Positions 7,581 through 45,089 of a stretch of DNA of 64,000 nt are shown here, one piece after another. This DNA comes from Candidatus Hydrogenedentota bacterium (GTDB lineage: Bacteria; Hydrogenedentota; Hydrogenedentia; Hydrogenedentales; SLHB01). The stretch lies in contig DAIPKA010000011.1 in NCBI GenBank assembly GCA_036769985.1, positions 44,818 through 108,817 on the forward strand. Direction: 5' to 3'. The notes below the pieces were generated by a model. It was not told where the DNA came from and searched no databases. It saw only the letters and a program-made list of their open reading frames with translations. Numbering within the stretch: position 1 is the stretch's first letter; each line of letters opens with the position of its first letter. A program made the translations under genes and the position numbers.

Positions 7581-7623
7581 GGATGCCACCCTATCTCCTT
7601 AAATGGCTAATCGTTAAATGGTT

Positions 7624-12897: not shown

Positions 12898-13068
12898 AGA
12901 GGCCTCCGGTGACGCTACGCCTACAGGACACAAGAACGGCAGCCCCAGGTCGGACCTGCCGCTACGGCCGAGCCATTCTACCAACCTATTCCTTGAAAGG
13001 AATGATCGCATTTGGAATAATGGCGATGCAACAAGACGTGTCTTCCGCGGCCAAGTATCCCACACGAT

Positions 13069-14316: not shown

Positions 14317-14327
14317 GGCCCTGCAGC

Positions 14328-17624: not shown

Positions 17625-19073
17625 GTGCACAGACTCTCCTGTGGGCTGGACTTCGGCACGACGAACTCGAGCGTAGCGCTTTCCGACGGTGACGCGACTC
17701 GGGTTCTCGAACTCGATCCAGTCAATGATACGCCGACCTCATTGCCCTCGTTGCTGTACATTACGCGCAAGGGCGAAACCATCGTTGGGCGCGCGGCCGC
17801 CAATGCCTTCATCGAGCGGAACATCGACCGCGAGATTATCCTGCGCCAGGTCGACCTCGGTATCAATATCCAGGGCTATGTGGCTTCCGAGCCAGACAAG
17901 AGCGAGTCGTACCGCCCGCCGGATCCCGACCAGGACACGCCGACCGAAGCAGTGCGCGCCCGCGCCATGGTGGAGGTCAACTCGCCCGGCCGTCTGTTCC
18001 AATCGCTGAAAAGCATGTTGCGGCTGCGGTCCTTCCGGAGCACCGAGGTATTCGGCGAGCAGTATCAGATCGAGCAGCTCACCGCGATGATCCTCCGGCC
18101 CATCAAGGAAGCCGTGGATCGCGTTGCCGGCCAACCGGTAAACTCGGCCGTTTTCGGTCGGCCGGTATGTTTCTCGACCGATCCGGGCGAGGATATTGCC
18201 GCGGAGCAACGGCTCCTGGTGGCGGCCCAATTGGCCGGTTTCGAGGAGGTAGGCTTCTTCTACGAGCCGGTGGCGGCCTGTGTCGAGTACGCCATCGCGA
18301 CGGATCGCAAGCAGCGGCTCATGGTCGTCGATATCGGGGGCGGAACATGCGACGTGTGTGTGATGGAATTTGGGGGCGCACACGGCATTGCCGAGCGGCT
18401 TGCGGAGAGCCGCATCCTCGGTGTGGCCGGTTTGCCGGTGGCCGGCGATGCCATCGACCGCGAGATCATCCGCGAGAAGCTGTTTCCGAGGTTCGGTAGT
18501 TGCGCGCGTTACGGCCCGTCGAACCTGCCGATGCCGCAGTATCTCTACAATCAGATTCTCGATTGGCAGAACCTGTACCGACTGAATACCGAGGAGACGA
18601 TCAACTGGTTGATCGCGGCCGAAGTCAGCTCGGATCAGCCGGAGACCATGCGCGCGCTGCGCTGCCTGATCCAGCGCAACTACGGGTATCCCGTGGCGCG
18701 GGAGGTCGAGGCCGCCAAGAAACGCCTTTCCTACGGCCTCGAGACGGATATCGACATCTACAAAGAAGCCATCCAGATCCATGAGCACCTCGAGCGCGCG
18801 GAGTTCGCCCATATCATCGAGCACACTATCGACAAAATGGCAACCACCATTGAAGAGGCCCTGTCCGCCGCGCAACTCAGTTCCGACGATATCGACTATG
18901 TGCTCACCACCGGTGGAACGAGTCTTGTTCCCGCCATTCTGGATATGATCGGCGGGCGTTTCGGTCTGGACCGGGTGATCCAGCGTGACACCTTCACAAG
19001 CGTTGCGGCCGGGCTGGCGATCGTGGCGCAGTACGCGCAGAAGAACGGGGCCGTGCTCAAGAACGGCCGTTGA
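17625..19073 (+). CDS. Hsp70-family ATPase, nucleotide-binding domain only (YegD-like), no substrate-binding domain
   Basis: Actin/Hsp70 phosphate-1 motif: LDFGTTNS. Phosphate-2: VVDIGGGTCDV. Adenosine motif: LTTGGTSLVPAIL. At 482 aa it is too short to include an SBD. Confidence 0.7.
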   Translation: MHRLSCGLDFGTTNSSVALSDGDATRVLELDPVNDTPTSLPSLLYITRKGETIVGRAAANAFIERNIDREIILRQVDLGINIQGYVASEPDKSESYRPPDPDQDTPTEAVRARAMVEVNSPGRLFQSLKSMLRLRSFRSTEVFGEQYQIEQLTAMILRPIKEAVDRVAGQPVNSAVFGRPVCFSTDPGEDIAAEQRLLVAAQLAGFEEVGFFYEPVAACVEYAIATDRKQRLMVVDIGGGTCDVCVMEFGGAHGIAERLAESRILGVAGLPVAGDAIDREIIREKLFPRFGSCARYGPSNLPMPQYLYNQILDWQNLYRLNTEETINWLIAAEVSSDQPETMRALRCLIQRNYGYPVAREVEAAKKRLSYGLETDIDIYKEAIQIHEHLERAEFAHIIEHTIDKMATTIEEALSAAQLSSDDIDYVLTTGGTSLVPAILDMIGGRFGLDRVIQRDTFTSVAAGLAIVAQYAQKNGAVLKNGR

Positions 19074-19092
19074 ACCGGTTGAGGCACGCGCT

Positions 19093-20145
19093 ATGGCCAA
19101 GGGCTCGAACTACACGTCCGAACGAGCGTTCTTCACGGATTCGGTCTCCGGACTCCGCGTGACGCGCCTGTCTCACTATGCCTGCATCTCGACCAACCTC
19201 TACTTCGAGATGACCTCATTCACGGAAGACGATGCCCATGTCGTCTTCATCTCCCAACGCGGCGCCGGACGCGACGCGCCGTGGGACCTGTTTCGCGTTC
19301 AGACCGATGGGATGGCGCTCGTGCAGATGACCGAACGCGACGACCTCCGGGGCATCGTGGTCTGCCCGGCGATCGGCAAGGTCCTCTTCCAGTCGGAAGG
19401 CGCATTGTTCGGGATGGACATGCTTTCGCTCGAAGAGGAATCCATCGCGGAGATTCCTGGCGTGGTTTGCCGCACCCACGGATATTCGCTGGCCACCATC
19501 GACCGTGCCGGAACAACCTATTTCGGGAATTGCCTCGACCCTAAGGGCGGCGAAGTCATCTTCAAGGTCGACACGGCCTCGGGCGGTGTCGACCCGCTGC
19601 TTCACGCGGAGGCCGTGAACCATCTGCACGTCGATCCCGAGTGTAAGACATTGCATTTCAACATGTTGAACGGCTACGAGGGCCGGGCGTACCTCATGGA
19701 TACGGACGGCGGCCGGGTGCGGCAATCCGGTTTCGAGCGGTTTGCCCATCACACATGGTTCGGCACGACCGGCAAGATGCAGGGCACGCTCCTGCCGCCG
19801 GGAAAAGCCCTCGCCATCCGAGGCGAACGCGATCCGGAACCGGAGATCCTCGTCGAAGGGCGCTACTACTGGCACTCGTCGTGCAGCGCCGACGCCGAAT
19901 GGATCGTCAGCGACACGAACTGGCCTCAGGAAGGGCTGTTCTTACTCCACGTGCCGACCGGCCGCGTGACCTACGTGTGCGATCCGCGGTCGTCGTGTTG
20001 CCATCCTCAGTGGACGCATCCCCACCCGTCGCTGTCGCCCGGCTTGCGGTACGTCTCATTCAACTCGGATCTCACCGGCGTCGGGCAAGTCTACCTGGTC
20101 GAGCTCACCGACGAATTCCTCGCGGCGGCGCGTCAGCCGCGCTGA
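19093..20145 (+). CDS. oligogalacturonide lyase family protein (PL22, Ogl-like)
   Basis: The N-terminus MAKGSNYTSERAFFTDSVSGLRVTRLSH and the C-terminal THPHPSLSPGLRYVSFNSDLTGVGQVYLVEL resemble the enterobacterial Ogl N-terminus (MAKGKQIPLTFETF...VEVTRLT) and C-terminus (THPHPSFTPD...LYLAKV). The ORF-track start at 18985 overlaps the upstream gene, so the ATG at 19093 is preferred. Confidence 0.6.
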   Translation: MAKGSNYTSERAFFTDSVSGLRVTRLSHYACISTNLYFEMTSFTEDDAHVVFISQRGAGRDAPWDLFRVQTDGMALVQMTERDDLRGIVVCPAIGKVLFQSEGALFGMDMLSLEEESIAEIPGVVCRTHGYSLATIDRAGTTYFGNCLDPKGGEVIFKVDTASGGVDPLLHAEAVNHLHVDPECKTLHFNMLNGYEGRAYLMDTDGGRVRQSGFERFAHHTWFGTTGKMQGTLLPPGKALAIRGERDPEPEILVEGRYYWHSSCSADAEWIVSDTNWPQEGLFLLHVPTGRVTYVCDPRSSCCHPQWTHPHPSLSPGLRYVSFNSDLTGVGQVYLVELTDEFLAAARQPR

Positions 20146-30655: not shown

Positions 30656-30870
30656 GCGATGTCCTCCCGTTGCCTTCGTGTATGATACTCAACCGTCGGA
30701 AGGCGTGGCTGGTAGTATGCCAGAATGCCTTACCGCGCGGGCGGCTGAAATGAGCATTTGACGAAATGTCCGTGTGCTGGCAGAATGCGCTTCATCGGTT
30801 CTGAGTCGGAGTGATGGTGTGGATAGGCCGCTCGCCTATCGGAAGAGGGAGGCCAGGGGAGGAACCAAGA

Positions 30871-31635
30871 ATGCGAAACACAAAACGAATCGTTCTGCTG
30901 ACGGTGTTGTGCGTGGGAATCGCGGTCACCGCGGCTGTGGGGCAACCGCTATATGCTGTGGACAGCAGCAACATCGGCATGCTGCGCCTCATGGATGCAG
31001 GGAGTGGCTCGGACATTATGATCATCGGCCCGACCATGGTACCGCATGCCGTTGGTATGGCGATGGATCCAACGACCGGCATCATGTACCTCGCCAACGC
31101 AGTCACTCTATTCACGGTGAATCTGGCCACTGGTATGTCAACGCTGGTGGGGTCATTTCCGCCGCGCAACATGATGCTCGACCTCACCTGCGATTCCGCC
31201 GGCAACTTGTACGGCATAACGGACGCCCTCTCGGACAATTGGCTCGTCCAGATCGACAAGGCCACCGGCGCCACAACGGACCTCGCGGACCTCGACGGCG
31301 AAGACAACGGACTGGCCTACAATCCTCTTGATCCGACCTACCTCTACCACTTCTACGGTGGGAATGCCTTCGAGAAGATCCAGATAGGCACGTGGGCCAG
31401 AACCCCGCTGACGGTTGTTGGCACGGCCACCGGCCCCAAAGGTCTCGTGTACAACCGTTACGCAAACGCATGTTGTTTCTTCGATAGCCTAGGCAATTTC
31501 CAGCTGCTCTCTCTCGCCGAGCCCTTGGTATTAGTCATCGGTACCGGAGCCGACGACTCGGCGAATACCTTTGGGCTGGCCTTTGACCAGGCCACGACGC
31601 TGCCCGTCGAGTTGAGCGCGTTCAGTATCGAGTGA
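30871..31635 (+). CDS. secreted beta-propeller-like hypothetical protein
   Basis: There is a GGAGG RBS and a signal peptide (MRNTKRIVLLTVLCVGIAVTAAVG). Repeated Gly/Thr-rich beta-strand segments follow (LYAVD..., MYLAN..., LYGITD..., LAYNPLD...). No family was assigned. The ORF-track GTG start at 30811 is rejected in favour of the ATG at 30871. Confidence 0.45.
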   Translation: MRNTKRIVLLTVLCVGIAVTAAVGQPLYAVDSSNIGMLRLMDAGSGSDIMIIGPTMVPHAVGMAMDPTTGIMYLANAVTLFTVNLATGMSTLVGSFPPRNMMLDLTCDSAGNLYGITDALSDNWLVQIDKATGATTDLADLDGEDNGLAYNPLDPTYLYHFYGGNAFEKIQIGTWARTPLTVVGTATGPKGLVYNRYANACCFFDSLGNFQLLSLAEPLVLVIGTGADDSANTFGLAFDQATTLPVELSAFSIE

Positions 31636-32291: not shown

Positions 32292-33584
32292 TTATCTCGC
32301 GTCCAGCGCGAAGAATTCGAGGGCGTTCTCGCGCAAGATTCGGCGGGCCACCCAGGACGCTTCCTCCTCCGTCAAGTATCCGGCCTCGACCTTTTGCGCG
32401 AGGACGTGTACCGTGCTGCGCCGCGCGATCTTGCCGTGACCGTAAGCGCCCTCGACGTAGTTAGAGTCGCCACCGAAACCGAGGATCTTGTTGAGCGGAA
32501 TCGTCTCGAGCCACTGATCAAGCGTCTGTTCCGCAACCGTGGGCGAGATGGCGTGAATCCAGCACAGGTCGGCGCACACGTTCGGGAAGTTCTTCGCGAG
32601 GGCGGTCACCTCGCCCACGTAGGGATATCCCGCATGGAACACGTCGAACCGCGTGTCGCCGAATTCCATGAACAGGTTCGTCAAGAGCGTCGGTTTCGAG
32701 TTCTCGAGGTAGTTGCCGTTTCCTTCCTGGAGTCCCGTGTGGATTTGGATTGGTAAGCCGCGGTCGGTGGCAAGGCCGATGAGGTGGCGTATCACGAAGT
32801 CCTGCAGCGGTTTCATATCTTCGAACCGGAGATCCTGCACCTGAGACAACCAGATGCGATCGAAACAGCGCGCGGCGGTAGCTCGGGCCGCAGCCTCGAA
32901 GCGGAGTGTTCGCCGATACGCCAGAAAGATCTTGACGGCGGCGATGCCTTGCTCGACGAACGCATCAAGTTGGGTTTCAAGTGCTGCCAGCAATTGGTCG
33001 AGGGTCTGGATCGCGCAGTCGGACTCGGCCTCGAGCGCCTCGAGTTCGGCACGCGTTGACGCCATGGCGTAGTGATCGAGGATGGGCACCGCGCGAAACA
33101 GATCGCGATCCACGACGACGGATTGGCCCGGCCACGTGATGGTAAGCGCGGTGTCGATGTTCGCCTTGTCCTTGAGGACATGGCGGTACCAGCCGGGCTG
33201 GTGCGCCTCGCGAATGCGCGCGGAGATCTCGCGATAGGTGTGTTCGTTGACGTCGTCGATGCCGAAGAGGTCGTGCATGTATTCGAGCATGGCGCGGCCG
33301 TAGCCTGTCGTGCGCGCATACGGCCAGTACGGTGCCATGAGCGCCCAACGCTCGTCGAGCGATAGGCCGTTCGTCCTATTGCGCATCCGCTCGAGGGATT
33401 CTCGCGACATGCCGGCCGACACGAGATCCGATGACACGTAGTGTTCGAAGAAATCGAAGAAACTCGACTCGCGGCCGCAGACCGTTTCCTCGGGCGGAAT
33501 GTGCTCGTGCGTGTCGACCATGGCAATCGTGTCGACAACCCTCTGTAGCCGTTCATGCAAATCCTTGGATGACTTGGTCATGGT
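32292..33584 (-). CDS. amidohydrolase_2 family TIM-barrel metal-dependent hydrolase
   Basis: VDTHEHIPP (HxH metal ligands), IQIHTG, FHAGYPY and GGDSNY are typical of the PF04909-type family (ACMSD/LigI-like). The start was chosen at MTKSSKDLHERL (33584). The ORF track extends to 33635, overlapping the upstream gene. Confidence 0.65.
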   Translation of the reverse strand, partial: TMTKSSKDLHERLQRVVDTIAMVDTHEHIPPEETVCGRESSFFDFFEHYVSSDLVSAGMSRESLERMRNRTNGLSLDERWALMAPYWPYARTTGYGRAMLEYMHDLFGIDDVNEHTYREISARIREAHQPGWYRHVLKDKANIDTALTITWPGQSVVVDRDLFRAVPILDHYAMASTRAELEALEAESDCAIQTLDQLLAALETQLDAFVEQGIAAVKIFLAYRRTLRFEAAARATAARCFDRIWLSQVQDLRFEDMKPLQDFVIRHLIGLATDRGLPIQIHTGLQEGNGNYLENSKPTLLTNLFMEFGDTRFDVFHAGYPYVGEVTALAKNFPNVCADLCWIHAISPTVAEQTLDQWLETIPLNKILGFGGDSNYVEGAYGHGKIARRSTVHVLAQKVEAGYLTEEEASWVARRILRENALEFFALDAR

Positions 33585-34375
33585 TGGACTCCGTCCAGGC
33601 GTTCGCCGAGCAGCGGCGGCGACGCGCTGTAGCACTCCTCGAGATCGATCATGTGGCAGCCGGCGCGCCGGCCTTGGTAGACGCCCTTCACCTGGTAGGC
33701 GACGGGATCCATCGTGATGATGGCCACGGCTACGCCGGTGCCTACCGAGAGGCCGGCGCGATAGGCGTCGAGCATCGGTCCGCGCGCCAGCAAGCGGCTC
33801 GGCCCGGCGGCAACACAGGCCATGACGGCCACGGCGCGCGGGAAACCATCCGCGTCGCGGAAGGCGATGGCGCGCACGGCTCTAAGGCGCCTGAACTTCT
33901 CGAGCACGCGCGGCGGCATGATCGGCGATGCCGAGCGTCCAAACGCCCGTGCCGCGCATCGTGCGCATGCGTAGCCGGCGAGGAGCGCTGTTGGCGATAG
34001 CGTCGATTTCTTGGAGATTTCCTCGATCGCGATCGTTCCGGCGCTGCGTACGCTGGTATAGGCGTTGTACCGGAACAGGGGCTGTTGGTTGATCCAATCG
34101 ATGTGCGGCCCGGTGGTCTCGAAACCTCTAAAGGTTCCCTTAAGGCTCCATGCATCAAGACGGTCATTAAGCACCACGACGCCGACGTTCTCGTTGACGG
34201 CGAGGTTCTTGCGGCTCTTGTTCATGAAGAACTCGCCGAACACCAGCGTGGTATCGTCCCACGGGGCAATACTGATCACCGGAACGCAGTTGGGACGCCC
34301 TTCGCCATCGAGCGTAGCGAGGAACTTTGGCGTCATCTCGCCAGCCAGAACGTCTCTGAGATCAGGCGTTAGCAT
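33578..34375 (-). CDS. PNPOx-like (pyridoxamine 5'-phosphate oxidase-related, FMN-binding split barrel) family protein, possibly two tandem domains
   Basis: It is 265 aa. The N-terminal part (LATLDGEGRPNCVPVISIAPWDDTTLVFGEFFMNKSRKNLAVNENVGVVVLN) resembles general-stress-protein-26/PNPOx split barrels. The assignment is by pattern only. Confidence 0.4.
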   Translation of the reverse strand: MLTPDLRDVLAGEMTPKFLATLDGEGRPNCVPVISIAPWDDTTLVFGEFFMNKSRKNLAVNENVGVVVLNDRLDAWSLKGTFRGFETTGPHIDWINQQPLFRYNAYTSVRSAGTIAIEEISKKSTLSPTALLAGYACARCAARAFGRSASPIMPPRVLEKFRRLRAVRAIAFRDADGFPRAVAVMACVAAGPSRLLARGPMLDAYRAGLSVGTGVAVAIITMDPVAYQVKGVYQGRRAGCHMIDLEECYSASPPLLGERLDGVQP

Positions 34376-34381
34376 TCCGCG

Positions 34382-35332
34382 TCAGCTCTCCGGATCCGCA
34401 ACGCGTGTGGGGCCGCTCCAGCGCGCGTGCGGCGAGCCCGCGTCGCGCGCGACGCGACACAGGCGCTCCATGTCGTTGGCATCAAGCAGCGGCGTGTCCG
34501 CCAAGGCGAAAGGCCTGTCCAGTTGCGCGTACTTCGCCGTGCACAGATTCGAGAACGCCAGGAGATCGTGCCGCGTGCAGTGGCGGAACGTCTCGGCGAC
34601 GAATCGCGCGACGCGGCGTACGGACTCCTCATCGGCCGTGTAGCCTGGTATGATCGGTGTGCGCACCCAGACCTCGACGCCGGATTCATCCATGGTTCGC
34701 GCGGCGTCGCGCACGCGGTCGAAGGCCACGCCGGTGAAGGCGCGATGTCGTTCCGGATCCACCGTCTTGATATCGATGAGCACGAGGTCGGTCCATTGCA
34801 GCGCCGCTTTCAACGTATTCTCCGTGGCCACGCCGCAGGTGTCGAGGGCCGTATGAACGCCGCGTTCGCGTAGCGCCCGCAGCACGGCCGTAGCGGCCTT
34901 CGGCTGGAGTAGCGGCTCGCCGCCCGACAACGTTACGCCGCCACCGGACTTGGCGTAGAACGCCGCGTCCTTGAGTAACGTCTCGACGAGATCGTCCACG
35001 CCCATCCGGTGGCCGTGGATTTCGAGGGCGGCGGACGGACAGAAATCGACGCATGTGCCGCAACCTCGGCACCGGCTCCGGTCGATCGCGATTCCACTCG
35101 GTTCGGCGCGCAACGCCCCCTCCGGGCACACGTCGACGCAGCCGCGATCGCCCAGGCACCGGCCGGCATGCCAGACGACCTCAGGCTCGGGCCGGATGGA
35201 TTCCGGATTGTGGCACCAGGGGCATCGCATAGGACACGCCTTGAAGAACACCGTCGTGCGAATGCCCGGCCCGTCCTCGGTCGAAAACCGCTGGATGTTG
35301 AAGAGGGTCGCTTCGATGGACGTGGCCGTCAC
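34382..35332 (-). CDS. glycyl-radical enzyme activating enzyme (radical SAM, with two auxiliary 4Fe-4S ferredoxin-like motifs)
   Basis: FNIQRFSTEDGPGIRTTVFFKACPMRCPWCHN is a CxxxCxxC radical-SAM motif of the PflA type. Two Cx2Cx2Cx3CP motifs (CLGDRGCVDVCP and CRGCGTCVDFCP) follow, as in activases of non-PFL GREs. The GTG start at 35332 overlaps the GRE stop (GTGA). Confidence 0.85.
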   Translation of the reverse strand: MTATSIEATLFNIQRFSTEDGPGIRTTVFFKACPMRCPWCHNPESIRPEPEVVWHAGRCLGDRGCVDVCPEGALRAEPSGIAIDRSRCRGCGTCVDFCPSAALEIHGHRMGVDDLVETLLKDAAFYAKSGGGVTLSGGEPLLQPKAATAVLRALRERGVHTALDTCGVATENTLKAALQWTDLVLIDIKTVDPERHRAFTGVAFDRVRDAARTMDESGVEVWVRTPIIPGYTADEESVRRVARFVAETFRHCTRHDLLAFSNLCTAKYAQLDRPFALADTPLLDANDMERLCRVARDAGSPHARWSGPTRVADPES

Positions 35333-37722
35333 CGACACGGTGCCTCCCGAGCGATGATTTCCTCCTGGATCTCGCGGCCGAGATTCACGAAGTATGCGTT
35401 GTAGCCGGTGACGCGAATGATAAGATTTCGAAACTCGTCGGGATTCCGCTGGGCCTCGCGCAAGGTCGCGGCATCGATCATGTTGATCTGCAATGCCGAA
35501 CCGCCCTCGACGCAATAGCCGCGCAGGAAACCGGCCAGCTTCTCGACGTGTTCGGTGTCGCGCACCAGCGACGGCGGCAGCGAGATCGTATGCGACGCGC
35601 CATTCGGGATGACTTCGAGGCCGAGGTCGCCCACGGCGCGGGCGGCGGCCGTTGGGCCGGCTCTGTCCATGCCCGGCACCGCCGCGACACCATTCGAGAG
35701 GTACGTGCCGCGCGTGCGGCCATCCGGTGTTGCCGAGGTGAGCGGCGCATAGGCGATGCCATAGTTCCACGAAAGATAGCCGCCCCGATAGCGTCGCTTC
35801 GTCAACGGTGTCTCCAGCGTGGCGGCCTCCTCCGCCCACCAGTGCGTCAAGTTGTGCGCCATGTTGTCGGCTTCCGGATCATCGTTACCGTACTTGGGCG
35901 CTTTGTTAAGCAAGACCTGCCGGAGAAACTCGTCGCCGTCGAAGTTGCGATCGACGGCGCGGAGGAGTGCCTCCATGGACACGCGCTTCGCCTCGAAGAC
36001 GAGCGTCTTCACGGCCGACAGGGAGTCGGCGGCCGTCGCGAGGGCGACGCCCTCCACGGTGATGTAGCTGAACCGTGCGCCCCCCGCCGTGACATCACGG
36101 CATCCCTCGATACACCCGCCGACCAGCGCCGACAGATAGGGCGTAGGCTCGAACCGCGCGCGCGTCGTGTCCGCTTGATTGTTGAGCTCGACGAGCCGCC
36201 GCAGGCAGAACGACAACTGCGTGCGGAATGCGGCCTCGAACTCCGGCCACGTGCGCATGGCGCGCGGATCGGGTGTCCGAGGGCCGATCTGCTTTCCGGA
36301 GGCCTGATCGCACCCTTCGAAAAGCGCCAACTCGACCGCCTTGGCCAGGTTTAGGTTCACGTCCACCGTGCCGGACCGATCATCGCCCTGACGCGTGTTT
36401 TCGAGGCATCCGACCGGCGCGTAGTCCCAGAGGTCGACCTCCGGCAGGCCCTGCCAGCGCAGGCCGCGCATGGATGTTTCGTCGAAATTGAGCAGAAACG
36501 GCGCGCCCTGCGCCCGAGACAACAACTGGCACACGCGCGTCAGCAGGCGATCCGGTGTGCGCGCATGCAGGCGGACGTTCGGCTTGGGCTCAAGGAGGTT
36601 GAGCTCCTCGATGACGTCGAGCAAAAGGTAGGTGAGGTCGTTCGCCCGGTCCTCGCCATCGGGGCCACAGCCCGCCAAGGTGATGAGTTGACCGAACGAC
36701 GAGTTGATGCCCTGATGGCGGCCGACACGGCCTTGGTAGTCGTAGGCGTAGTTTGGTTTGATGAAGAAGCACCGGACAAACTCGCGGGCGTCGTCGCGTG
36801 TGAGCCGGCCCTCGGCAACATCGCGCTGGTAGTAGGGCCACAGGTACTGATCGATTCGTCCGAAGGACACGCCGGCCCCCGGATACGACTCGCTTGTGAG
36901 CACGAGCATGTGCGTCAGCCACAGCGCCTGAAGTGCCTCGTGGAATGTTTCCGCCGGCGCCCACGGTACCTTCCGGCAGACGGCGGCGATCTCGCGGAGT
37001 TCGGCGGCGCGAGCCGGCGCCGCGCCCAACGCCTGCCGTTCGGCCTCCGAGGCGTACCGGTCTGCCAGCGCGCCGGCCGCACGACACGCGATGGAAAAGG
37101 ACTCCAACACGTCCCGCCGGGCGGGATCCGGCTCGGAGTCCTGGGCGCGGCGTATCGCTTCGACGATGCCGCCGAATCCGATCCGGAGCACCTTCGGATA
37201 ATCCGGAATCAGATGGCCCGGCACCGCGCCGCAGTTGCCGAGTCCGAGATTCGACGTATCCGAAGCGGCCATCCGGAACGCTTCAGCGGCTTTCGCGCGT
37301 TGTCTGGCTTCCGATCGTGTCAGGCACAAGGACAAGGCCGAGTTGAACTGCCCGCCGACGATGAGCTCGCCTTCCAGAATGTCCACGGGCAAGTGGTGCG
37401 CGAGCACCTCGGCAAAGAACAGCGCCACGCGCACCGGCAGGGGCCGTTCCCAGAAACCGTTCGGCAACGGAACCACGCGCGCGGCGGCACATAGCGAATC
37501 CTCGTAGGCCTTCAGAAACGGCAGTATCTCCGGCACGATCGTCCAGCTCGCATACCGGTACACCGTGTCCCAAGGAGTACCGGTCGTGAACGGCATCACC
37601 TCGTTCCGGAATGGCCGTGTCTCGAACGAGAAGTACTCATCGCGCAGGCGTAGGATCCGATTCGAGAGGGCATCGGAAGGATTCCAGCACGCGGCGCGGC
37701 GCGATTGGGTGACGATGGCCAT
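35329..37722 (-). CDS. glycyl radical enzyme, PFL-like fold, eliminase/dehydratase type (substrate unknown)
   Basis: It is 797 aa. The C-terminal glycyl radical loop is IIRVTGYNAYFVNL (an RVxGY variant). The active-site thiyl loop PVGCLENTRQG carries the Cys-x-Glu dyad typical of GRE 1,2-eliminases (glycerol dehydratase, CutC, HypD). Its size matches the dehydratase clade. Confidence 0.85.
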   Translation of the reverse strand: MAIVTQSRRAACWNPSDALSNRILRLRDEYFSFETRPFRNEVMPFTTGTPWDTVYRYASWTIVPEILPFLKAYEDSLCAAARVVPLPNGFWERPLPVRVALFFAEVLAHHLPVDILEGELIVGGQFNSALSLCLTRSEARQRAKAAEAFRMAASDTSNLGLGNCGAVPGHLIPDYPKVLRIGFGGIVEAIRRAQDSEPDPARRDVLESFSIACRAAGALADRYASEAERQALGAAPARAAELREIAAVCRKVPWAPAETFHEALQALWLTHMLVLTSESYPGAGVSFGRIDQYLWPYYQRDVAEGRLTRDDAREFVRCFFIKPNYAYDYQGRVGRHQGINSSFGQLITLAGCGPDGEDRANDLTYLLLDVIEELNLLEPKPNVRLHARTPDRLLTRVCQLLSRAQGAPFLLNFDETSMRGLRWQGLPEVDLWDYAPVGCLENTRQGDDRSGTVDVNLNLAKAVELALFEGCDQASGKQIGPRTPDPRAMRTWPEFEAAFRTQLSFCLRRLVELNNQADTTRARFEPTPYLSALVGGCIEGCRDVTAGGARFSYITVEGVALATAADSLSAVKTLVFEAKRVSMEALLRAVDRNFDGDEFLRQVLLNKAPKYGNDDPEADNMAHNLTHWWAEEAATLETPLTKRRYRGGYLSWNYGIAYAPLTSATPDGRTRGTYLSNGVAAVPGMDRAGPTAAARAVGDLGLEVIPNGASHTISLPPSLVRDTEHVEKLAGFLRGYCVEGGSALQINMIDAATLREAQRNPDEFRNLIIRVTGYNAYFVNLGREIQEEIIAREAPCR

Positions 37723-37814
37723 AGGCCTGGTTTATCCTATCGCTTCGGAACGCTATCTGCATCATACTCGACCGAGTTGGATTTGGCAAAACGCTGCGGG
37801 GTTGAGGCGGGAAG

Positions 37815-37868
37815 CTTGTACGCACAAGTTATTCACTCGTTGACAAGCAATGGCGGATCGCGTAGACT
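37815..37868 (+). promoter_or_regulatory. candidate operator (CTTGT-N4-ACAAG inverted repeat, GntR-type GT..AC) followed by sigma-70-like promoter TTGACA-17-TAGACT for the regulator gene
   Basis: cttgtacgcacaag lies at 37815-37828. TTGACA lies at 37840-37845, followed by a 17-nt spacer and TAGACT at 37863-37868. The site is in the 196-bp divergent intergenic region between the GRE operon and the regulator. Confidence 0.35.
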
Positions 37869-37918
37869 ATGGCCGCTGCGGGTCGCTTTCGTGAGAGGCA
37901 GTGGTGAGCGTGGTGGTC

Positions 37919-39067
37919 ATGGGAAAGCCAACCCCTATCTACGAGTGTATCAAGCAAGATCTGCGTGACAGGATCGACTCCGGTGAGTTAGCCGAAGGCG
38001 CCTCGGTGCCTTCGGAATACCAGCTCGCCGAGCAGTTGGCCGTCAGCAGACACCAGACGCGCCAAGCCTTGCGCGAACTTGAACTCGAAGGGTACATTCT
38101 CCGTTCGCAGGGCCGTCGCTCGGTGGTGGCGCCGGCGAGCCGGAGGGCTCGGGCCGTTTCGGTGCCCGGGCCCGGCACGGTGGCCGTCGCGCTCCAGCAG
38201 CTTGACACGACTCACGTGCGCCGGATCTTCGAGGGGTTCGTGGCTCAGGCCGCTCTCCACGACGTGCAATATGTCCTGTACAGCCTTCGGTTCGAGCCGG
38301 AGGAGGAGCTCGACTTTCTGCGGCGGGTTCACGGGGCGGGATTCGCGGGTCTTATTGCCTGGATCCATAATGACCGTGTGGAGATTCGGAGGTCGCTCGA
38401 GGCCTGCCTCGGCTCGCATTTTCCAGTGGTGCTGGTGGATCGGTTCTTGCCGGGTCTCGAGACGGACTATGTGGTGACGGACAATGAGATGATCGGCTAC
38501 CGTTTGACCCAGCACCTCATCCAGCGCGGCCACGAACGAATCGGCTTCATCGGAACGCATGACGGGGCCTCGAGCGGCGCCTTGCGGTTCCAGGGGTATC
38601 GACGCGCGCTGAGAGAGGCCGGACTTGGATTCCACCAAGGCTTCTTCGGCCACATCCACACCGACTACGTTGCCGCTGCCGACACCGTCAAGAGCATTAT
38701 GTCCTTCAAGTCTGCGCCGACGGCTTTCGTGTGCATTCACGACCTATTTGTCCGTCAGCTTGTCGAGGCGCTCAAGCAGATCGAGTATCGCATACCGGAG
38801 GACATCGAACTGGCCATGGTGGGGGATGAGCGCAATGCCGTGGCTATTGGTGTTCCGGCCTTCACATTGTGCCAACCGAGTTTCGAGATTGGTTATCAGG
38901 CGACGGAAATCCTTCTCCGTCGCATCGAAGGTATGGATACAGCGGCGGAGCAGCGACGCCTTGCGCCGGTGGCGGCCTTGGCCTCAGGCCGCGACCGCGA
39001 ACTCAGCGGCGCGATGTCCGGCCGGCCAATCTGGCGCGATCACAGCAAGACCGCGTCGAAGCCGTGA
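37919..39067 (+). CDS. transcriptional regulator: GntR-type winged-helix HTH fused to LacI-type periplasmic-binding-protein-like sugar-binding domain
   Basis: The N-terminus [54 protein letters not shown] is a GntR HTH. The rest is a Peripla_BP-like domain (DGLIAWI.., FPVVLVDR.., IGFIGT...). An in-frame GTG at 37901 is an alternative start. Confidence 0.75.
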
Positions 39068-39093
39068 CGCCAAAAGGAGAGGATTCGGGTGTG

Positions 39094-40044
39094 ATGAAGA
39101 AAAGCATGGGCTTTACGCTGATTGAGCTGTTGGTCGTCATCGCCATCATTGGCATTCTCGCGGCCATTCTGTTGCCGGCCCTGGCGCGTGCGCGCGAGGC
39201 CGCACGACGCTCGAGTTGCGCCAACAATCTCAAGCAGATGGGTATCGTGTTCAAGATGTACGCCGGCGAGAACGCGGATGAGTTTCCGACGCTACGGATC
39301 ATCACGAGCAGCGACAACGAAGTGGAGTCGACCCGGTGCAATCGTTTCCAGGTCGGCACGATTTGCGATGGCCCACAGGTCTATCCGGAATACCTGACCG
39401 ACGTCAGCATTCTCTGGTGTCCTTCCGATCCCGACGGAGAAGACCGCGCCCGCGACAACTGGTTCTACGGGCCCGGCGACGGCACTTTCGATCCCTGCTC
39501 GATCGACCCGGATTCCTACAACTACATGAGTTGGGCGTTCCGCCCGGAGGACTATCTGATCGGCACCGGCGGCGACAATGCCCAGGATCCGCAGATCGGC
39601 CGCGACATTTCGCCCAACCTGATCACGGCCGTGGCGGAGGTACTGGCTTTCGCCACCACCGTGACGTTCTCGAGCCCGCCGGAGGCCATCCAGCGCCTGG
39701 TGGATCTGTACACCAACCCGGTGGAGTTCTACCATGAAGAGCGCGGCAATGTGGTGATCCAGCGACTCAAGGAAGGCGTCGAGCGGTTCCTGGTTGAGGA
39801 CGTGGCCGATGCGTCCGCCACCTCGGTAGGTCAATCCGAAATCGTCACCATGTACGACTCGATTACGTCCAAGCCGATCACGGGCGGCGCCTACGGCTTC
39901 ACGACGTTCAATCACGTACCCGGCGGCGCCAATGTGCTCTACATGGACGGTCACGTCGAGTTCGTGAAGTACCCATCGAAGTACCCGTGCAGCACGACCT
40001 GGGCCTTCATCATGACCTTCGCGTACGACATGTCCGGTTCCTGA
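39094..40044 (+). CDS. prepilin-type N-terminal cleavage/methylation domain protein with DUF1559 (H-X9-DG) domain
   Basis: [48 protein letters not shown] is the hallmark N-terminus of planctomycetal DUF1559 pseudopilin-like proteins. The C-terminal [10 protein letters not shown] is an H-X9-DG-like motif. A good RBS (AAAGGAGAG) precedes the start. Confidence 0.8.
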
Positions 40045-40060: not shown

Positions 40061-41194
40061 TTACGACCGCTGCTGAAAGCCCTTGAGCTTGTCGAGGAAG
40101 CGGAGGTGGATCGGATAGGTCTTGCTGTTGCTCTCGCGCTCGAACTCATCGAGGAGTTCCCGCTGGCGCTTCGAGAGTCTCGATGGGGTCTCGACCTGGA
40201 TCCGGACGATCTGATCCCCTTGGCGATAGCCGCGTACGTCCGGCATGCCAAGGCCGCGGAGCCGCAGCAGGGCGCCCGACTGGGTGCCGGGCGCGACGCG
40301 GAGCTCGGCCTCGCCGGTGAGCGTCGGAACGCGGAGCGTCGCGCCCAGCGCGGCCTCCGGGAAACTGATCGGGACCTCGCACAGAATCGTGTTCCCATCT
40401 CGCTCGAAGATGTCGTCCGGCTCGATCTCGATTCGAACGTAGAGATCGCCGCGCGGGCCGCCACCGAGTCCAGGCTCCCCCTCGCCGGACAGTCTCAGCC
40501 GCTGGCCCGTGTCGATCCCGGCCGGCACGTCGACGGACAGCTCGCGCGTGCTTCGTACATGTCCGCCGCCGCTACATCGGCGACAGGGATTGGCGATGTG
40601 GGCGCCCGTGCCTCGACAGCGCGTGCACGTGCGCGTCACACTGAAGAACCCCTGCGATACGCGCACCTGGCCCGTGCCATGGCATTCGGGGCAGGGCTCC
40701 GCCTGCTTGCCGCCCGCCGCGCCGGTGCCGTGGCACTCACCACAGGTCTCCATGCGGTCGAACCGGAGGTGCTTTTTGCACCCCAAAGCGGCTTCGCGTA
40801 GGGTGATCGACAAGCAGGTCTCGATGTCGTTTCCCGGCTGGGCGGCGCGCCGTCCGGACCCGCGTCCACCAGGACGACGGCCGCCAAACAGCATGTCGAA
40901 CAGATCCTCGAAGGGGGCGTCAAATCCACCGCCGCCGAACCCGCTGAACGGATCGGTACCCGAGAATCCTGCGCCGCTCGCCCCAAAGCGATCATACTGG
41001 GCGCGCTTCTCCGGATTCTTTAGGACATCGTAGGCCGCGTTGATCTCCTTGAGGTGATTCTCGGCCTCCTTGTCCCCACCGGTCTTGTCCGGATGGTACT
41101 GGTGGGCAAGCTTGAGATACGCCTTTCGAAGATCGGTCTCCGAGACGTCACGGCTCACGCCGAGTATTTCATAAGGGTCCCAGTGTTCGGGCAT
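40061..41194 (-). CDS. dnaJ: molecular chaperone DnaJ
   Basis: A J-domain carries the HPD motif (YHPDKTGGD). A G/F-rich linker follows. Four CxxCxGxG zinc-finger repeats are present (CGECHGTG, CPECHGTG, CTRCRGTG, CRRCSGGG). The C-terminal substrate-binding domains are present. Confidence 0.95.
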   Translation of the reverse strand: MPEHWDPYEILGVSRDVSETDLRKAYLKLAHQYHPDKTGGDKEAENHLKEINAAYDVLKNPEKRAQYDRFGASGAGFSGTDPFSGFGGGGFDAPFEDLFDMLFGGRRPGGRGSGRRAAQPGNDIETCLSITLREAALGCKKHLRFDRMETCGECHGTGAAGGKQAEPCPECHGTGQVRVSQGFFSVTRTCTRCRGTGAHIANPCRRCSGGGHVRSTRELSVDVPAGIDTGQRLRLSGEGEPGLGGGPRGDLYVRIEIEPDDIFERDGNTILCEVPISFPEAALGATLRVPTLTGEAELRVAPGTQSGALLRLRGLGMPDVRGYRQGDQIVRIQVETPSRLSKRQRELLDEFERESNSKTYPIHLRFLDKLKGFQQRS

Positions 41195-41324
41195 AGGTCA
41201 ACTGGACGCTTCTTGCTGCGCCAGGGCGTCGTCCGGTCGCGCGCAGACTGGCTCGCGGAGACCGGCGCCGCTTCTTGGTTTCGTTCCTAGGGCTGGATAA
41301 TGCACACACGGCCGCACATCGCCC

Positions 41325-43250
41325 TCAGTTGCTCGTTTCTTCATCGTCTACAACGCGAAAGTCCGCATCCATCGTGCTGCCGGTGCCGCCCGTCTTCGGC
41401 GACGGTCCTTCTGGCTCGGGACCCGGTTGGGGCCCGGCCTGCTGGGCCTGAGCCGAGGCTGCGTACAGGACCTCGGCCAGCTTGTGCGAGGCCTGCGTCA
41501 GCCGCTCGGTGGCCGACTCGATGGCAGAAAGGTCGCTTCCGTCAAGGGCTTTGCGCACATCGGCGATAGCCGACTCGATCGCGGCCCGCTCGCTCGGTCC
41601 GACCTTGTCGCCATGCTCGCGGAGCGTCTTCTCGGCCGAGTAGCACAGGGCATCGGCGTTGTTGCGGATCTCGACTTCCTTTTTGCGCGCCTGATCCTCG
41701 CTCGCGTGAGACTCGGCGTCCTTCACCATGCGCTCGATTTCGCTCTCCGAGAGCCCGCTCGACGACTCGATCCGGATCTTCTGCTCACGGCCGGTACCGA
41801 GATCCTTCGCGGACACGTGAACGATGCCGTTCGCGTCGATGTCGAACGACACCTCGATCTGGGGTATGCCCCGGGGGGCCGGGGGAATACCGATCAGGTC
41901 GAACCGGCCGAGCGTCCGATTGTCGCGGGCCAGCTCACGCTCGCCCTGGAGCACATGAATCGTGACCGCGGTCTGGCTGTCCGAGGCCGTCGAGAAGATC
42001 TGACGCTTCGTGACCGGAATCGTCGTGTTCCGATCGATGAGCTTGGTACAAATACCGCCCAGGGTCTCGATACCGAGCGACAGCGGCGTCACATCGAGCA
42101 GCAACACATCCTTCACGTCGCCCGAGAGGACGCCGCCCTGGATCGCGGCGCCGACGGCGACCACCTCATCTGGATTCACGCCCCGATGCGGTTCCTTGCC
42201 GAAGATGCTCTTCACGATGGCGCCGACGGCCGGCATCCGCGTCATGCCACCGACCAGGATGACCTCGTCGATATCACTGGGGCTCAACCCTGCATCCTCG
42301 ATGGCCCGATGGCACGGATTCTTCGTGCGTTGCAGCAGGGCGTCGCAGAGTTGCTCCAGTTTCGACCGGGTCAATGTGTAGTTGAGATGCTTCGGCCCCG
42401 AAGCGTCCGCCGTGATGAACGGCAGGTTGACATCCGTCGACATCGCCGACGAGAGCTCGCATTTGGCCTTCTCGGCGGCCTCCTTCAGTCGCTGAAGGGC
42501 CATCGGATCCTTGCGCAGGTCGATCCCCTGCTCTCGAAGGAATTCCTCGGCAAGCCAGTCGATGACGCGCTGGTCGAAGTCGTCGCCGCCCAGATGAGTG
42601 TCGCCGTTCGTGCTCAGCACCTCGAAACTGTCGTCACCGATGGCGAGCACCGAGACGTCGAAAGTGCCGCCGCCCAGGTCGTACACGGCCACCTTCTCAT
42701 CCTTCTTCTTGTCGAGGCCATAGGCGAGCGCGGCGGCCGTCGGCTCGTTGATGATACGCAGCACCTCAAGCCCCGCAATTCGACCGGCGTCCTTGGTGGC
42801 CTGTCGTTGCGAATCGTTGAAATAGGCCGGTACCGTGACCACCGCCTGCGCCACCTTCTGGCCCAGGTAGGCTTCCGCCGTCTCCTTCATCTTTTGAAGA
42901 ATCATGGCCGAGATCTCGGGAGGCCGATGGGTGGTTCCCTGGATCTCGACCTGGCAATCGCCCGTATTCGAGGCTGTCACCCGGTACGGCACAAGGCGCT
43001 CTTCTTCCGTCACCTCGTTGTGTCGACGTCCCATGAACCGCTTGATCGAGAAGACCGTGTTCTGCGGATTCGTCACCGCTTGACGTTTTGCGACGGCGCC
43101 CACGAGCCGTTCACCGCCCTTCGTGAACGCGACGACTGACGGCGTCGTGCGGCCGCCCTCGGCGTTGGCAATGACCGTCGCTTCGCCGCCTTCCATTACC
43201 GCGACACACGAGTTCGTCGTGCCTAGGTCGATTCCGATGACCTTACTCAT
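41325..43250 (-). CDS. dnaK: molecular chaperone DnaK (Hsp70)
   Basis: It is a full-length Hsp70 of 641 aa ([39 protein letters not shown]), with a substrate-binding domain and a C-terminal lid. Confidence 0.97.
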
Positions 43251-43286
43251 TGCGTGTTATCCTCCACAGGAACCGTCAAGGTTCCT

Positions 43287-43940
43287 CTAGTCGTCTGCGC
43301 CTTCGGCGGCCCCGGTGCAATCCGCCACGTTCTGCTCACGGTCGAGCGATACCGAGGGACCTCCGCTCACCACAACCTTAGACGGCCGCAACACAAAAGT
43401 GCCCAGCCGGTATCCTCTCTGAAACTCCTCGACAACCACATCGGCCGGATGCGTCTCCGACGCCTTCCGCATCACCGCTTCGTGCACGCTCGGATCGAAC
43501 GGTTCGCCCACGGCCTCGATCGCCTTCACGCCGTGGCGCCCGAGCGCGTCGCTCAGTTGCCGTAACACCATTTCCACGCCCTCGGCCAAACCGCCCGAGG
43601 CGCCATCGGCATGGGCCACGGCCCGCTCGAGATTATCCAGCACCGGCAGCAGATCGCCGATCAGATCTTGTGCGGCGCGCGCGCGCATTTGCTCATTCTC
43701 ACGGGCCGTCCGCTTGCGGTAGTTGTCGAACTCCGCACGCGCCCGGAGCAACTGATCCTTCAGCGCGTCCCGTTCCGCCGCAAGCGCATCGATATCCGCT
43801 TCGGCCGCCTTCGTTTCGTCGGTCGCTTCGACCTTGCCTACCGCGGTTTCCGTGTCGTCTGTCTGTGATGCTTCCGCCGCAGACAATTCCGCCTCCCATC
43901 GTTTCTCAAGTTCCGTCTTCTCTGGCTGCTTCTTACCCAT
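43287..43940 (-). CDS. grpE: nucleotide exchange factor GrpE
   Basis: LKDQLLRARAEFDNYRKRTARE...DLLPVLDNLERA...FDPSVHEAV...RGYRLGTFVLRPSKVVVS. The start was chosen at MGKKQPEKTE (43940). The ORF track extends to 44003. Confidence 0.9.
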   Translation of the reverse strand: MGKKQPEKTELEKRWEAELSAAEASQTDDTETAVGKVEATDETKAAEADIDALAAERDALKDQLLRARAEFDNYRKRTARENEQMRARAAQDLIGDLLPVLDNLERAVAHADGASGGLAEGVEMVLRQLSDALGRHGVKAIEAVGEPFDPSVHEAVMRKASETHPADVVVEEFQRGYRLGTFVLRPSKVVVSGGPSVSLDREQNVADCTGAAEGADD

Positions 43941-44027
43941 GCCACTTACCACCGCTTCGCCTGCTCCGCGCGAGTCATCGCGCTTAGGCACCACACGTGC
44001 CAACTCACTTGCGCACCCTAGGACACC

Positions 44028-45089
44028 CTACCCGGTAAGTCGATCCAGCAACCGACTCAACATGGCGGCGGTGTAGTCCACGACCGACGTCAACCGCGGA
44101 TAGGGCATCCGCCTCGGGCCCAGAACGCCAAGTCGGCCTACGGCCTTGCCCTGAACCCGATACGGGGATGTCACCACACTGATATCTTCATGACCCATCT
44201 CGGCGGCCTCGAGGCCGATCACAACCGACGAATGCGCCCCGGACTCCGCGCGCGTCACACCGGCCCGCAACAGCTCGACAAGCCGTTCGCGCTCGTCCAG
44301 TAGGCCGAGCACCTCGCGCGCCTTCGCCATATCATTGAACTCGGGCTGTTCCATCAGCTGCGCCGTACCCTCCAGAAACAGAGGCTCGGGACGGCCCGCC
44401 GGCAACAAGTCCAGCACACGCAGGGCCTGTTCCGCCAAACGTCGCTGCTCGTACAACCACTCCTGCATGTGCGCCCGCAGCGACATCGTCAAGCCACTCG
44501 TTGGAATGCCGGCGAGTTCGTCATTCAAGAACCCGGATAGCCGGGTCAGTTCCATCGCGGGAATCGGTTCCTCCAAGGCCACCAGCGTCGTCCGCACGCG
44601 GCCCAGACTATCGGCAATCAGAACCGCCGCCCGGTTGTCCGACACCGGAATGAGATCGATGCGGCGCACCTCGGCGCTCTCCGGAGCCGGCGCCTCCACA
44701 ATGCCGGTCTGATGCGTAACCAAGGCCAGCAAGTGACTCGTTTGGCGCATGAGGTCATCCACATCATTCAACTTCTCCGACAGCTCGCGCTCGATGCGCT
44801 GCCGCTCGCTCAGCGTCAACTCCTGCACCCGCATCAGGTAATCGACATAGTAACGGTACCCCAGGTCCGTGGGGACCCGCCCCGAGCTCGTGTGAAGTTG
44901 CTTCAGGAAACCGGTCTCCTCCAAGTCCGCCATCGTGTTGCGCACGGTCGCCGGACTCAGATCCAACTGAAACCGCTTCACGATCGTCCGAGAGCCCACC
45001 GGTTCCGCCGTCGTGATGTAACTGTGCACCACGGCGCGGAGAATGAGTTTCTCCCGGTCGTTGAGTTGTGATTCGGGACTCATGGGCAC
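44028..45089 (-). CDS. hrcA: heat-inducible transcription repressor HrcA
   Basis: The N-terminal winged helix is LNDREKLILRAVVHSYITTAEPVGSRTI. HrcA is the first gene of the hrcA-grpE-dnaK-dnaJ operon and sits immediately downstream of the CIRCE element. Confidence 0.9.
   Translation of the reverse strand: MPMSPESQLNDREKLILRAVVHSYITTAEPVGSRTIVKRFQLDLSPATVRNTMADLEETGFLKQLHTSSGRVPTDLGYRYYVDYLMRVQELTLSERQRIERELSEKLNDVDDLMRQTSHLLALVTHQTGIVEAPAPESAEVRRIDLIPVSDNRAAVLIADSLGRVRTTLVALEEPIPAMELTRLSGFLNDELAGIPTSGLTMSLRAHMQEWLYEQRRLAEQALRVLDLLPAGRPEPLFLEGTAQLMEQPEFNDMAKAREVLGLLDERERLVELLRAGVTRAESGAHSSVVIGLEAAEMGHEDISVVTSPYRVQGKAVGRLGVLGPRRMPYPRLTSVVDYTAAMLSRLLDRLTG

Follow-up and report, generated by a model that had tools for sequence, protein, structure and literature searches.

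A glycyl radical enzyme family encoded with a tandem split-barrel protein, examined in an operon of a Hydrogenedentota bacterium

Introduction

Glycyl radical enzymes (GREs) carry out chemically difficult reactions under anaerobic conditions. The newly assigned specificities for choline, hydroxyproline, isethionate and anhydro-sugars have each opened a pathway of ecological or medical importance. The closest described relatives of the system studied here are the glycerol dehydratase (GD) of Clostridium butyricum with its activase (DhaB1/DhaB2; 1R8W/1R9D), propanediol dehydratase (PD) and HypD. We analyzed a GRE operon in a stretch of 64,000 nucleotides from a Candidatus Hydrogenedentota bacterium (contig DAIPKA010000011.1 of assembly GCA_036769985.1, positions 44,818 to 108,817 of the forward strand). 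The whole stretch is called the window. The operon encodes an oxygen-sensitive GRE, its radical-SAM activase, a protein with two split beta-barrels (the partner) and an amidohydrolase; a regulator gene is divergent from it.

The GRE system of the window shares with DhaB1/DhaB2, PD and HypD the fold, the domain order, the Cys-x-Glu (CXE) loop, a histidine equivalent to H164 of GD, the RVxGY glycine loop, and an activase with a ferredoxin-like insert. It differs from them in its whole-chain identity, which is 26–27%, and it falls below the subfamily and equivalog cut-offs. Compared with DhaB1, H281, S282 and Y640 are replaced, and the window GRE has the signature GCLENTxxGxDRSGTV/LSWNY/RVTGYNAYF. 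The gene of the split-barrel partner is a feature of the window GRE family and is not known from the GD, PD and HypD systems.

Two further comparisons are instructive. YbiW and PflD open the ring of 1,5-anhydro-hexitol-6-phosphates, with an aldolase acting afterwards. They are CXE-type enzymes on sugar derivatives, and aldolases also adjoin the module described here in two loci of relatives, L084 and L091 (L-numbers denote fetched loci). Their sequence matches to the window GRE (E 1e-78 to 1e-80) are weaker than those of GD, HypD and CutC, they have no split-barrel partner, and most loci of the family lack an aldolase. The gamma subunit of 4-hydroxyphenylacetate decarboxylase (HPAD), the beta and gamma subunits of benzylsuccinate synthase (BSS) and the delta subunit of (1-methylalkyl)succinate synthase (MASS) are small extra proteins that, like the partner, are encoded with one GRE clade and are specific to it. 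Those subunits are small Fe-S or rubredoxin-like proteins on decarboxylases or X-succinate synthases, whereas the 265-aa partner, a putative accessory of an eliminase-like GRE, is built of two split barrels in tandem (the FMN/heme fold).

The point of interest is a conserved GRE–activase–split-barrel unit that reaches the Asgard archaea. In the searchable literature, nothing relevant was found on GREs of Hydrogenedentes or on GREs whose partner is a PNPOx, split-barrel or FMN-binding protein, and the 2026 GRE review names no such partner. As a GRE accessory component, the tandem split-barrel protein would be of a new kind. A single odd operon is turned into a defined, expressible target of three genes with clear signature motifs.

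A conserved unit of GRE, activase and split-barrel protein

The fetched loci were searched by tblastn with the five proteins of the window locus. Family genome loci were those with a GRE at least 44% identical to the window GRE, and the partner was counted where there was at least 2.2 kb of downstream sequence; control loci had a GRE of at most 37% identity. A homologue of the partner is present in 30 of the 32 family genome loci with this flank. Its gene immediately follows that of the activase; in L002 and L003 it immediately follows the GRE gene instead, and the activase is approximately 10 kb away. The two of the 32 without a partner are also without an activase. In a separate metagenome set, all 19 family loci with at least 2.2 kb downstream contain the partner. 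No partner match was obtained in the control loci (0 of 48 genome loci, and 0 of 25 metagenome loci with enough flank). Partner identity follows GRE identity closely (r = 0.98), and a reverse look-up starting from a partner protein recovered the same GRE–activase–partner arrangement. The conserved unit is GRE, activase and tandem split-barrel protein, and it is near-universal in the family. An earlier note on this DNA had taken the regulator and the hydrolase as the informative context and overlooked this module. The comparison shows that neither is the constant companion of the GRE, and corrects a substrate hypothesis that would steer screening.

The family is widespread. Relatives at 61% identity or more form at least 120 clusters (clustered at 90% identity) and come from Hydrogenedentes, Geothermincolales/Solincola, Anaerolineae, Dehalococcoidia and Polyangia. 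A sister branch at approximately 45% identity includes Smithella/Syntrophaceae, Spirochaetota, Anaerolineales and Asgard archaea. The taxa of the family are Hydrogenedentota, Actinomycetota, Chloroflexota (Dehalococcoidia, Anaerolineales), Planctomycetales, Spirochaetota, Syntrophaceae/Smithella and Asgard archaea. Its members, none of them characterized, belong to at least seven bacterial phyla and to the Asgard archaea; the habitats are anoxic sediments, peat, groundwater and digesters. Both branches carry the same signature motifs: GNxGAxxGH, ESYPGxGxSxGRxDQY, GCLENTxxGxDRSGTV, LSWNY and R[VI]TGYNAYF are invariant in the clade with identities of about 57% or higher as well as in that with about 42–52%.

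Two database entries stand apart taxonomically. The module of L004 (DATKVG010000197.1), which is 80% identical, lies on a contig binned as "Candidatus Bathyarchaeia archaeon". A GRE of 79% identity (P0012) and its partner are entered for Roseovarius pacificus, which lives aerobically and belongs to the Alphaproteobacteria; a look-up of P0012 found no record of this protein. Both entries appear to stem from mis-binning or from contaminating Hydrogenedentota DNA.

Two other loci have unusual arrangements. In L085 (4143-7798), a GRE of 76% identity is without an adjoining activase or partner and is flanked by URO-D-family genes and methyltransferases. On the 97-kb metagenome contig L098 (7434-14155), the order is TetR, GRE-1, GRE-2, activase and partner, with one activase gene after both GREs. 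GRE-1, directly upstream of the family GRE, is a different PFL2-type GRE of 818 aa. It is itself uncharacterized and therefore gives no clue to the substrate.

Motifs and placement of the glycyl radical enzyme

The GRE has the barrel and the C-terminal glycine-radical domain of the PFL-like enzymes (PF02901 and PF01228; Table 1), a Cys-loop cysteine, and an adjacent cognate activase with a CX3CX2C motif. The Cys-x-Glu dyad that the earlier note read in this 797-aa protein was borne out. The Cys loop, PVGCLENT, holds the catalytic Cys439, a leucine and Glu441. Cys439 aligns with C433 of GD, C489 of CutC and C434 of HypD. Glu441 aligns with E435 of GD and His170 with H164 (pairwise HMMER alignments). 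The CXE motif (GCLE) is invariant across the whole family. The glycine loop, RVTGYNAYF, carries the radical glycine, Gly773. It had been described as a variant loop, yet RVTGY agrees with the canonical RVxG[FWY] fingerprint and is nothing out of the ordinary.

The neighboring activase passes its family model TIGR02494, in agreement with the ferredoxin-type activase proposed earlier. It has the motif CPMRCPWC (CX3CX2C) and an insert with two ferredoxin-type clusters. There is an alternative in-frame GTG start at 35338.

None of the specific family models accepts the GRE. Against TIGR01774 (glycerol dehydratase/PFL2 subfamily), it scores 452.7 bits with a cut-off of 678.2, and the match covers residues 162-793 only. 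The NCBIfam equivalogs are all far from being reached: score and cut-off are 401/1100 for HypD, 384/1000 for HpsG and 333/1050 for CutC, and the rest of the set (HpfG, IAD, HPAD and PFL) gives 339/1000, 248/1100, 220/1150 and 114/994. The best sequence matches in the Protein Data Bank (PDB) are GD of C. butyricum (E 1e-104), CutC, HypD, A. fulgidus PFL2 and IseG, with coverage from about residue 168 on. In a Foldseek search with an AlphaFold2 model, HypD, GD, PD, CutC and IslA are near-equal neighbors (TM ~0.75, 23–27% identity). The mean pLDDT of this model is 77.5. Values are below 50 at residues 330-344, 654-660, 675-695 and 773-797, and the glycine loop is modeled as a helix. With confidence this low in the active-site and glycine loops, the model was used for the fold search only.

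Within the glycerol-binding residue set of GD, only H164 is retained (as H170). In pairwise HMMER alignments, Ala stands in place of H281, Gly in place of S282 and Leu in place of Y640; at D447 there is a Val, with an Asp following at +1. These replacements are family-wide. Sequence comparison supports placing the GRE outside every characterized GRE family. Because it is below all family models and about equidistant from HypD, GD, PD, CutC and IslA, the new specificity that the earlier note proposed is supported, and a pocket unlike that of any characterized GRE suggests that the substrate is new. The note's view that the gene context differs from that of known GRE systems also holds, given the equivalog scores and a partner that has no counterpart in the review, whose full catalogue of characterized eliminases and isomerases contains nothing similar to this system.

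A divergent B12-independent glycerol or 1,2-propanediol dehydratase, with the partner being incidental, was considered. GD is the best PDB sequence match, and the Cys, Glu and His are retained. Locus L015 has an iron-containing alcohol dehydrogenase (Fe-ADH), nearest to lactaldehyde reductase models, and an aldehyde ferredoxin oxidoreductase (AOR) downstream, as in diol-dismutation pathways; the class II aldolases in L084 and L091 could supply lactaldehyde. This reading has to accommodate a score under the TIGR01774 cut-off, the family-wide loss of H281, S282 and Y640, an equal distance to HypD, CutC and IslA, and a strictly co-inherited partner that is foreign to GD and PD systems. We regard it as highly improbable.

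The tandem split-barrel partner

The earlier note called the third gene product a PNPOx-like flavin-binding protein. The family match holds for the N-terminal half, where PNPOx_N is just over its cut-off (Table 1). Flavin binding is suggested by the fold. With regard to a true pyridoxamine 5'-phosphate oxidase, this PNPOx_N match is the one family match; the fold is a generic split barrel, and no NCBIfam model matched. The two halves are homologous to each other (hhalign probability 96%, E 3e-9), and the AlphaFold2 model (pLDDT 92, pTM 0.90) shows two split beta-barrels. This makes the partner a pseudo-dimer, fused from two copies of a cofactor-binding fold. The best Foldseek matches are HupZ, the flavin mononucleotide (FMN)-binding protein of D. 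vulgaris and Syntrophomonas Swol_0183, together with F420- or heme-binding relatives. Each half matches with E values of 7e-10 to 1e-5 and TM scores of 0.7–0.84 on the target. The HupZ/HutZ heme-binding proteins and the D. vulgaris protein resemble each half in fold. They are single-domain homodimers of about 120–150 aa, whereas the partner is fused and has invariant motifs of its own (GRPNCVPV, FGEFxMNKxRxNL, FRYNAYT, AYQVKG and CYSASPP).

The gene order gives conflicting hints as to which protein the partner associates with. In L002 and L003 the partner gene adjoins that of the GRE; in L090 it has remained beside the activase gene. An activase requires a donor of single electrons, a task that flavodoxin performs for the activating enzyme of PFL in E. 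coli (PFL-AE). The partner might accordingly substitute for flavodoxin as a low-potential FMN electron carrier that reduces the [4Fe-4S] cluster of the activase, without belonging to the catalytic machinery. The nearest folds are those of HupZ and of small proteins from anaerobes that bind FMN and transfer electrons (D. vulgaris FMN-bp, Swol_0183), and in L090 the partner accompanies the activase where a GRE is absent. In L002 and L003, however, it directly follows the GRE, with the activase far away. Activases of the same type in control GRE loci have no such partner, and strict co-variation with one GRE clade points to a GRE-specific role. An electron carrier for the activase is thus an unlikely explanation in our judgment.

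A different possibility is a two-component GRE class, in which a flavin or heme subunit exchanges electrons with the GRE active site. A small and common metabolite would then undergo net redox chemistry in place of a redox-neutral elimination; a reductive dehydroxylation like that of class III ribonucleotide reductase is one example. We hold this to be very unlikely. Were it true, the presence of the module in Asgard archaea would mean that a PFL-like GRE from archaea could be assigned a function for the first time.

Proposed chemistry

The explanation that fits best, and that we consider probable, is a family of CXE-type GREs that perform an eliminase- or isomerase-type cleavage next to a hydroxyl group and work with the split-barrel protein. 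In the window, a UxaC-like enzyme and an AraR-type repressor would be added to this unit. CXE is the defining motif of GRE eliminases and isomerases and is carried by all characterized ones (2026 GRE review). In the proposed mechanism, the activase would place the radical on Gly773, from where it would pass to Cys439. The Cys439 thiyl radical would abstract a hydrogen; the carbon attacked would either carry a hydroxyl group itself or be adjacent to one. Glu441 may deprotonate this hydroxyl, and His170 may help a neighboring leaving group to depart. The product would be a carbonyl compound, most likely an aldehyde. The split-barrel protein could bind a cofactor as an accessory subunit, transfer electrons, or catalyze the following step of the pathway.

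Several observations weigh against this explanation. CXE is also found in GRE decarboxylases such as HPAD, so that the eliminase/isomerase chemistry is that of the nearest neighbors and not a proof. The AlphaFold2 model of the GRE is unreliable in the active-site and glycine loops, and the statements about the pocket come from pairwise sequence alignments. L006 and L085 have the GRE alone and L090 has activase and partner without a GRE; the adjacency of the three genes is therefore not absolute. The genome and metagenome locus sets have some contigs in common, and the counts are for this reason not fully independent. Finally, AOR and Fe-ADH genes are about equally frequent near control GREs (AOR lies near 4 of the 38 family genome loci and near 3 of the 48 control loci, and Fe-ADH, too, is common near control GREs), so they argue only slightly for an aldehyde product.

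The neighbors beyond the three-gene unit are variable. AOR genes are found near the family loci L015, L019, L025, L084, L106, L110, L114, L116 and L122. Besides the class II aldolase, L091 has a zinc-dependent alcohol dehydrogenase and a short-chain dehydrogenase/reductase (SDR) that passes the sorbitol-6-phosphate dehydrogenase model. Other loci have TetR regulators, DUF6901, acyl-CoA-dehydrogenase-like genes or a sulfatase. No bacterial-microcompartment shell family is among the Pfam matches of the annotated neighbors. We rejected two candidate clues to the substrate. Aldehyde-handling neighbors fit an aldehyde product and do not discriminate the family from the controls. The lipid-related context (FadR-type regulators, acyl-CoA dehydrogenase-like genes, SCP2, ceramidase, patatin) is too patchy and too lineage-restricted to name a substrate.

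In the Syntrophaceae/Smithella branch (L017, L018, L023, L025, L027-L029, L102, L103, L105 and L120), a FadR-type regulator (GntR with FCD/FadR_C) is located directly upstream of the GRE. It belongs to a different family from the regulator of the window. A DUF6901 protein is often near the GRE in this branch.

The operon, its regulator and the sugar hypothesis

The four-gene operon claimed in the earlier note was confirmed, with all of its genes and motifs present. It runs on the minus strand in the order GRE, activase, partner and amidohydrolase, and the junctions are 4-nt overlaps or a 6-nt gap. The GRE stop and the GTG start of the activase overlap as GTGA (35332-35329), as the note had read. 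The activase stop is 6 nt from the partner start, and the partner stop overlaps the ATG of the amidohydrolase as ATGA. With this last overlap, the four genes form a single tightly packed unit, which holds the partner and amidohydrolase genes together with those of the GRE and activase. As the GRE also lies outside every characterized clade, neither of the two findings that the note had named as refuting its hypothesis was obtained. The next gene downstream is convergent and approximately 650 nt away; the operon was for that reason counted as four genes.

The amidohydrolase assigned in the note is real (PF04909; Table 1). It is a TIM-barrel protein with an N-terminal D-T-H-E-H metal motif that includes H-x-H. 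It did not qualify as a uronate isomerase: the glucuronate isomerase model NF002794 gives 56 bits with a cut-off of 387, and PF02614 covers about 100 residues. Its PDB matches, 2qpx and 4i6v, are structures of unknown function. By tblastn, neither the amidohydrolase nor the regulator has a match in any other fetched GRE locus searched, including those with a GRE 79–80% identical. Orthologues of the amidohydrolase (68–70% identical) occur on three other Hydrogenedentes contigs, beside unrelated genes and not next to a GRE. By this distribution, the amidohydrolase is a lineage-specific addition to the operon. Among the loci compared, the module of this genome alone has gained a translationally coupled UxaC-like enzyme.

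The divergent regulator combines a GntR winged helix-turn-helix (wHTH) with a LacI-type effector domain, as proposed earlier and as seen in the Pfam domains (Table 1). Its open reading frame (ORF) is listed from a GTG at 37901; an ATG at 37916 (MGKPTPIYE...) fits the start of the GntR domain better and is likely the true start. The regulator is about 21% identical to an AraR sequence, a figure to be taken as a lead only. AraR of Bacillus subtilis has the same chimeric build, and the box found here adjoins the regulator gene, as in autoregulation. AraR represses the arabinose regulon, whereas the regulator of the window adjoins a GRE operon in a different phylum. The AraR architecture is a GntR helix-turn-helix fused to a GalR/LacI effector domain, and the 16-bp operator consensus is ATTTGTACGTACAAAT, in which G9, A11 and T16 are critical (PMC1950556).

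The inverted repeat reported in the shared promoter region, cttgtacgcacaag, is present exactly at 37815-37828. It has one mismatch to the AraR operator core TTGTACGTACAA (11/12). The 16-bp site, GCTTGTACGCACAAGT, matches 12 of the 16 positions of the consensus, including the three critical ones. It is the single site within one mismatch of the core in the 64 kb, with 0.03 expected in shuffled sequences. There is no second AraR box within two mismatches in the window, save one inside an ABC-ATPase ORF. A repeat search did not report cttgtacgcacaag, and a bare 5+5 palindrome is not beyond chance, so that the significance of the box comes solely from the match to the AraR consensus. The site is situated between two divergent promoter-like sites. 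Fusion of a GntR wHTH with a GalR/LacI-type domain and a palindromic operator-like site near a promoter are thus both found, as in the AraR subfamily. The box at 37814-37829 is a credible candidate operator for both the regulator gene and the GRE operon. Here alone, control of the module would have passed to an AraR-type repressor, which probably responds to sugars and would bind this box.

This context led the earlier note to a sugar acid or another sugar-derived metabolite as the substrate. The GRE would dehydrate or cleave it, isomerization of either this substrate or its product would fall to the UxaC-like enzyme, and induction of the operon to a sugar-sensing regulator. The ATGA coupling of the UxaC-like gene and the AraR-type regulator with its AraR-like box are consistent with such a pathway, and YbiW and PflD, isomerases of anhydro-sugar phosphates with subsequent aldolases, are a precedent. 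A GH2 gene with CBM60 lies 1.6 kb away, with SGNH esterases and a PL22-like gene further off. Some family loci have class II aldolases (L084, L091), the SDR passing the sorbitol-6-phosphate dehydrogenase model (L091) or a GH31 gene (L011). Against this stand the absence of the regulator and the amidohydrolase from every other GRE locus searched by tblastn, including the relatives with 79–80% GRE identity, and the amidohydrolase orthologues in other Hydrogenedentes, which are neither GRE-linked nor sugar-linked. Carbohydrate genes are missing from most family loci; regulators in the Syntrophaceae branch are of the FadR type, and other loci have acyl-CoA dehydrogenase-like or lipid-related neighbors. 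The UxaC match is far below its cut-off. What stands of the proposal is the sugar-sensing type of regulator with a credible operator. A sugar acid in particular would be suggested by nothing beyond the weak UxaC similarity, and a sugar-derived link would draw on scattered and not on conserved context. A sugar-acid pathway as the family function is not supported, and a sugar-derived substrate appears rather unlikely.

Flanking genes

The features of the window are collected in Table 1. The PL22 and GH2 genes that the earlier note placed nearby fared differently. The GH2-family protein with CBM60 was confirmed, and near the operon it is the sole clear glycoside hydrolase. The oligogalacturonate-lyase match of the PL22-like gene is partial and the gene lies 12 kb away; its pectin-degrading label is therefore uncertain. 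Between the GH2 gene and the operon there is a convergent secreted DUF4394-like gene (30811-31635). The 248-aa ORF that overlaps the end of this convergent gene is probably not a gene.

Table 1. Features of the GRE locus and its surroundings (positions within the window)
Feature	Position	Strand	Basis
Amidohydrolase-superfamily TIM-barrel protein, 430 aa	32292..33584	-	PF04909 43 bits; PF02614 UxaC 26 bits
Tandem split-beta-barrel (PNPOx/HupZ/FMN-binding-protein fold) protein, 265 aa	33578..34375	-	PF01243 in N-terminal half only, 32.7 bits (cut-off 28.1)
GRE-activating radical-SAM enzyme	34382..35332	-	TIGR02494 327 bits (cut-off 174); Pfam Radical_SAM and Fer4 matches
GRE, 797 aa	35329..37722	-	PF02901 442 bits; PF01228 77.5 bits
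Sigma-70-like promoter candidate, GRE operon	37761..37789	-	TTGCCA-17-TATGAT; 10/12 consensus matches; consensus match alone
Candidate AraR-type operator GCTTGTACGCACAAGT	37814..37829	.	12/16 of ATTTGTACGTACAAAT including G9, A11, T16; 11/12 of core
Sigma-70-like promoter candidate, regulator gene	37840..37868	+	TTGACA-17-TAGACT; 10/12 consensus matches; consensus match alone
AraR-type regulator	37901..39067	+	PF00392 GntR wHTH, residues 14-76; PF13377 and PF00532 (Peripla_BP_3/_1), residues 95-356
GH2-family protein, secreted, 1383 aa	26504-30655	-	CBM60 near C-terminal end (two stretches; best 1301-1375)
PL22-like gene	18985-20145	+	First 122 of 386 positions of oligogalacturonate-lyase model, E 6e-11; 12 kb from operon
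ORF, 248 aa	31531-32277	-	No family match; Arg/Ser-rich; overlaps end of convergent gene

Directly 3' of the regulator gene, 39088-40044 (+) encodes a protein with a prepilin-type N-terminal methylation motif and DUF1559 (SBP_bac_10). A similar gene is also near the module in L091. In the window, the minus strand at 40061-45089 reads as a heat-shock cluster, recognized by eye from the translations, with HrcA (44028-45089), GrpE (43287-44003), DnaK (41325-43250) and DnaJ (40061-41194).

At the other end of the window, 4029-15503 contains four GDSL/SGNH-hydrolase ORFs (7719-9200, 9197-11047, 13069-14316 and 14328-15503). They are interleaved with two PMT_2 and TPR proteins (4029-6266 and 10699-13065) and a GT2/GtrA gene (6456-7580).

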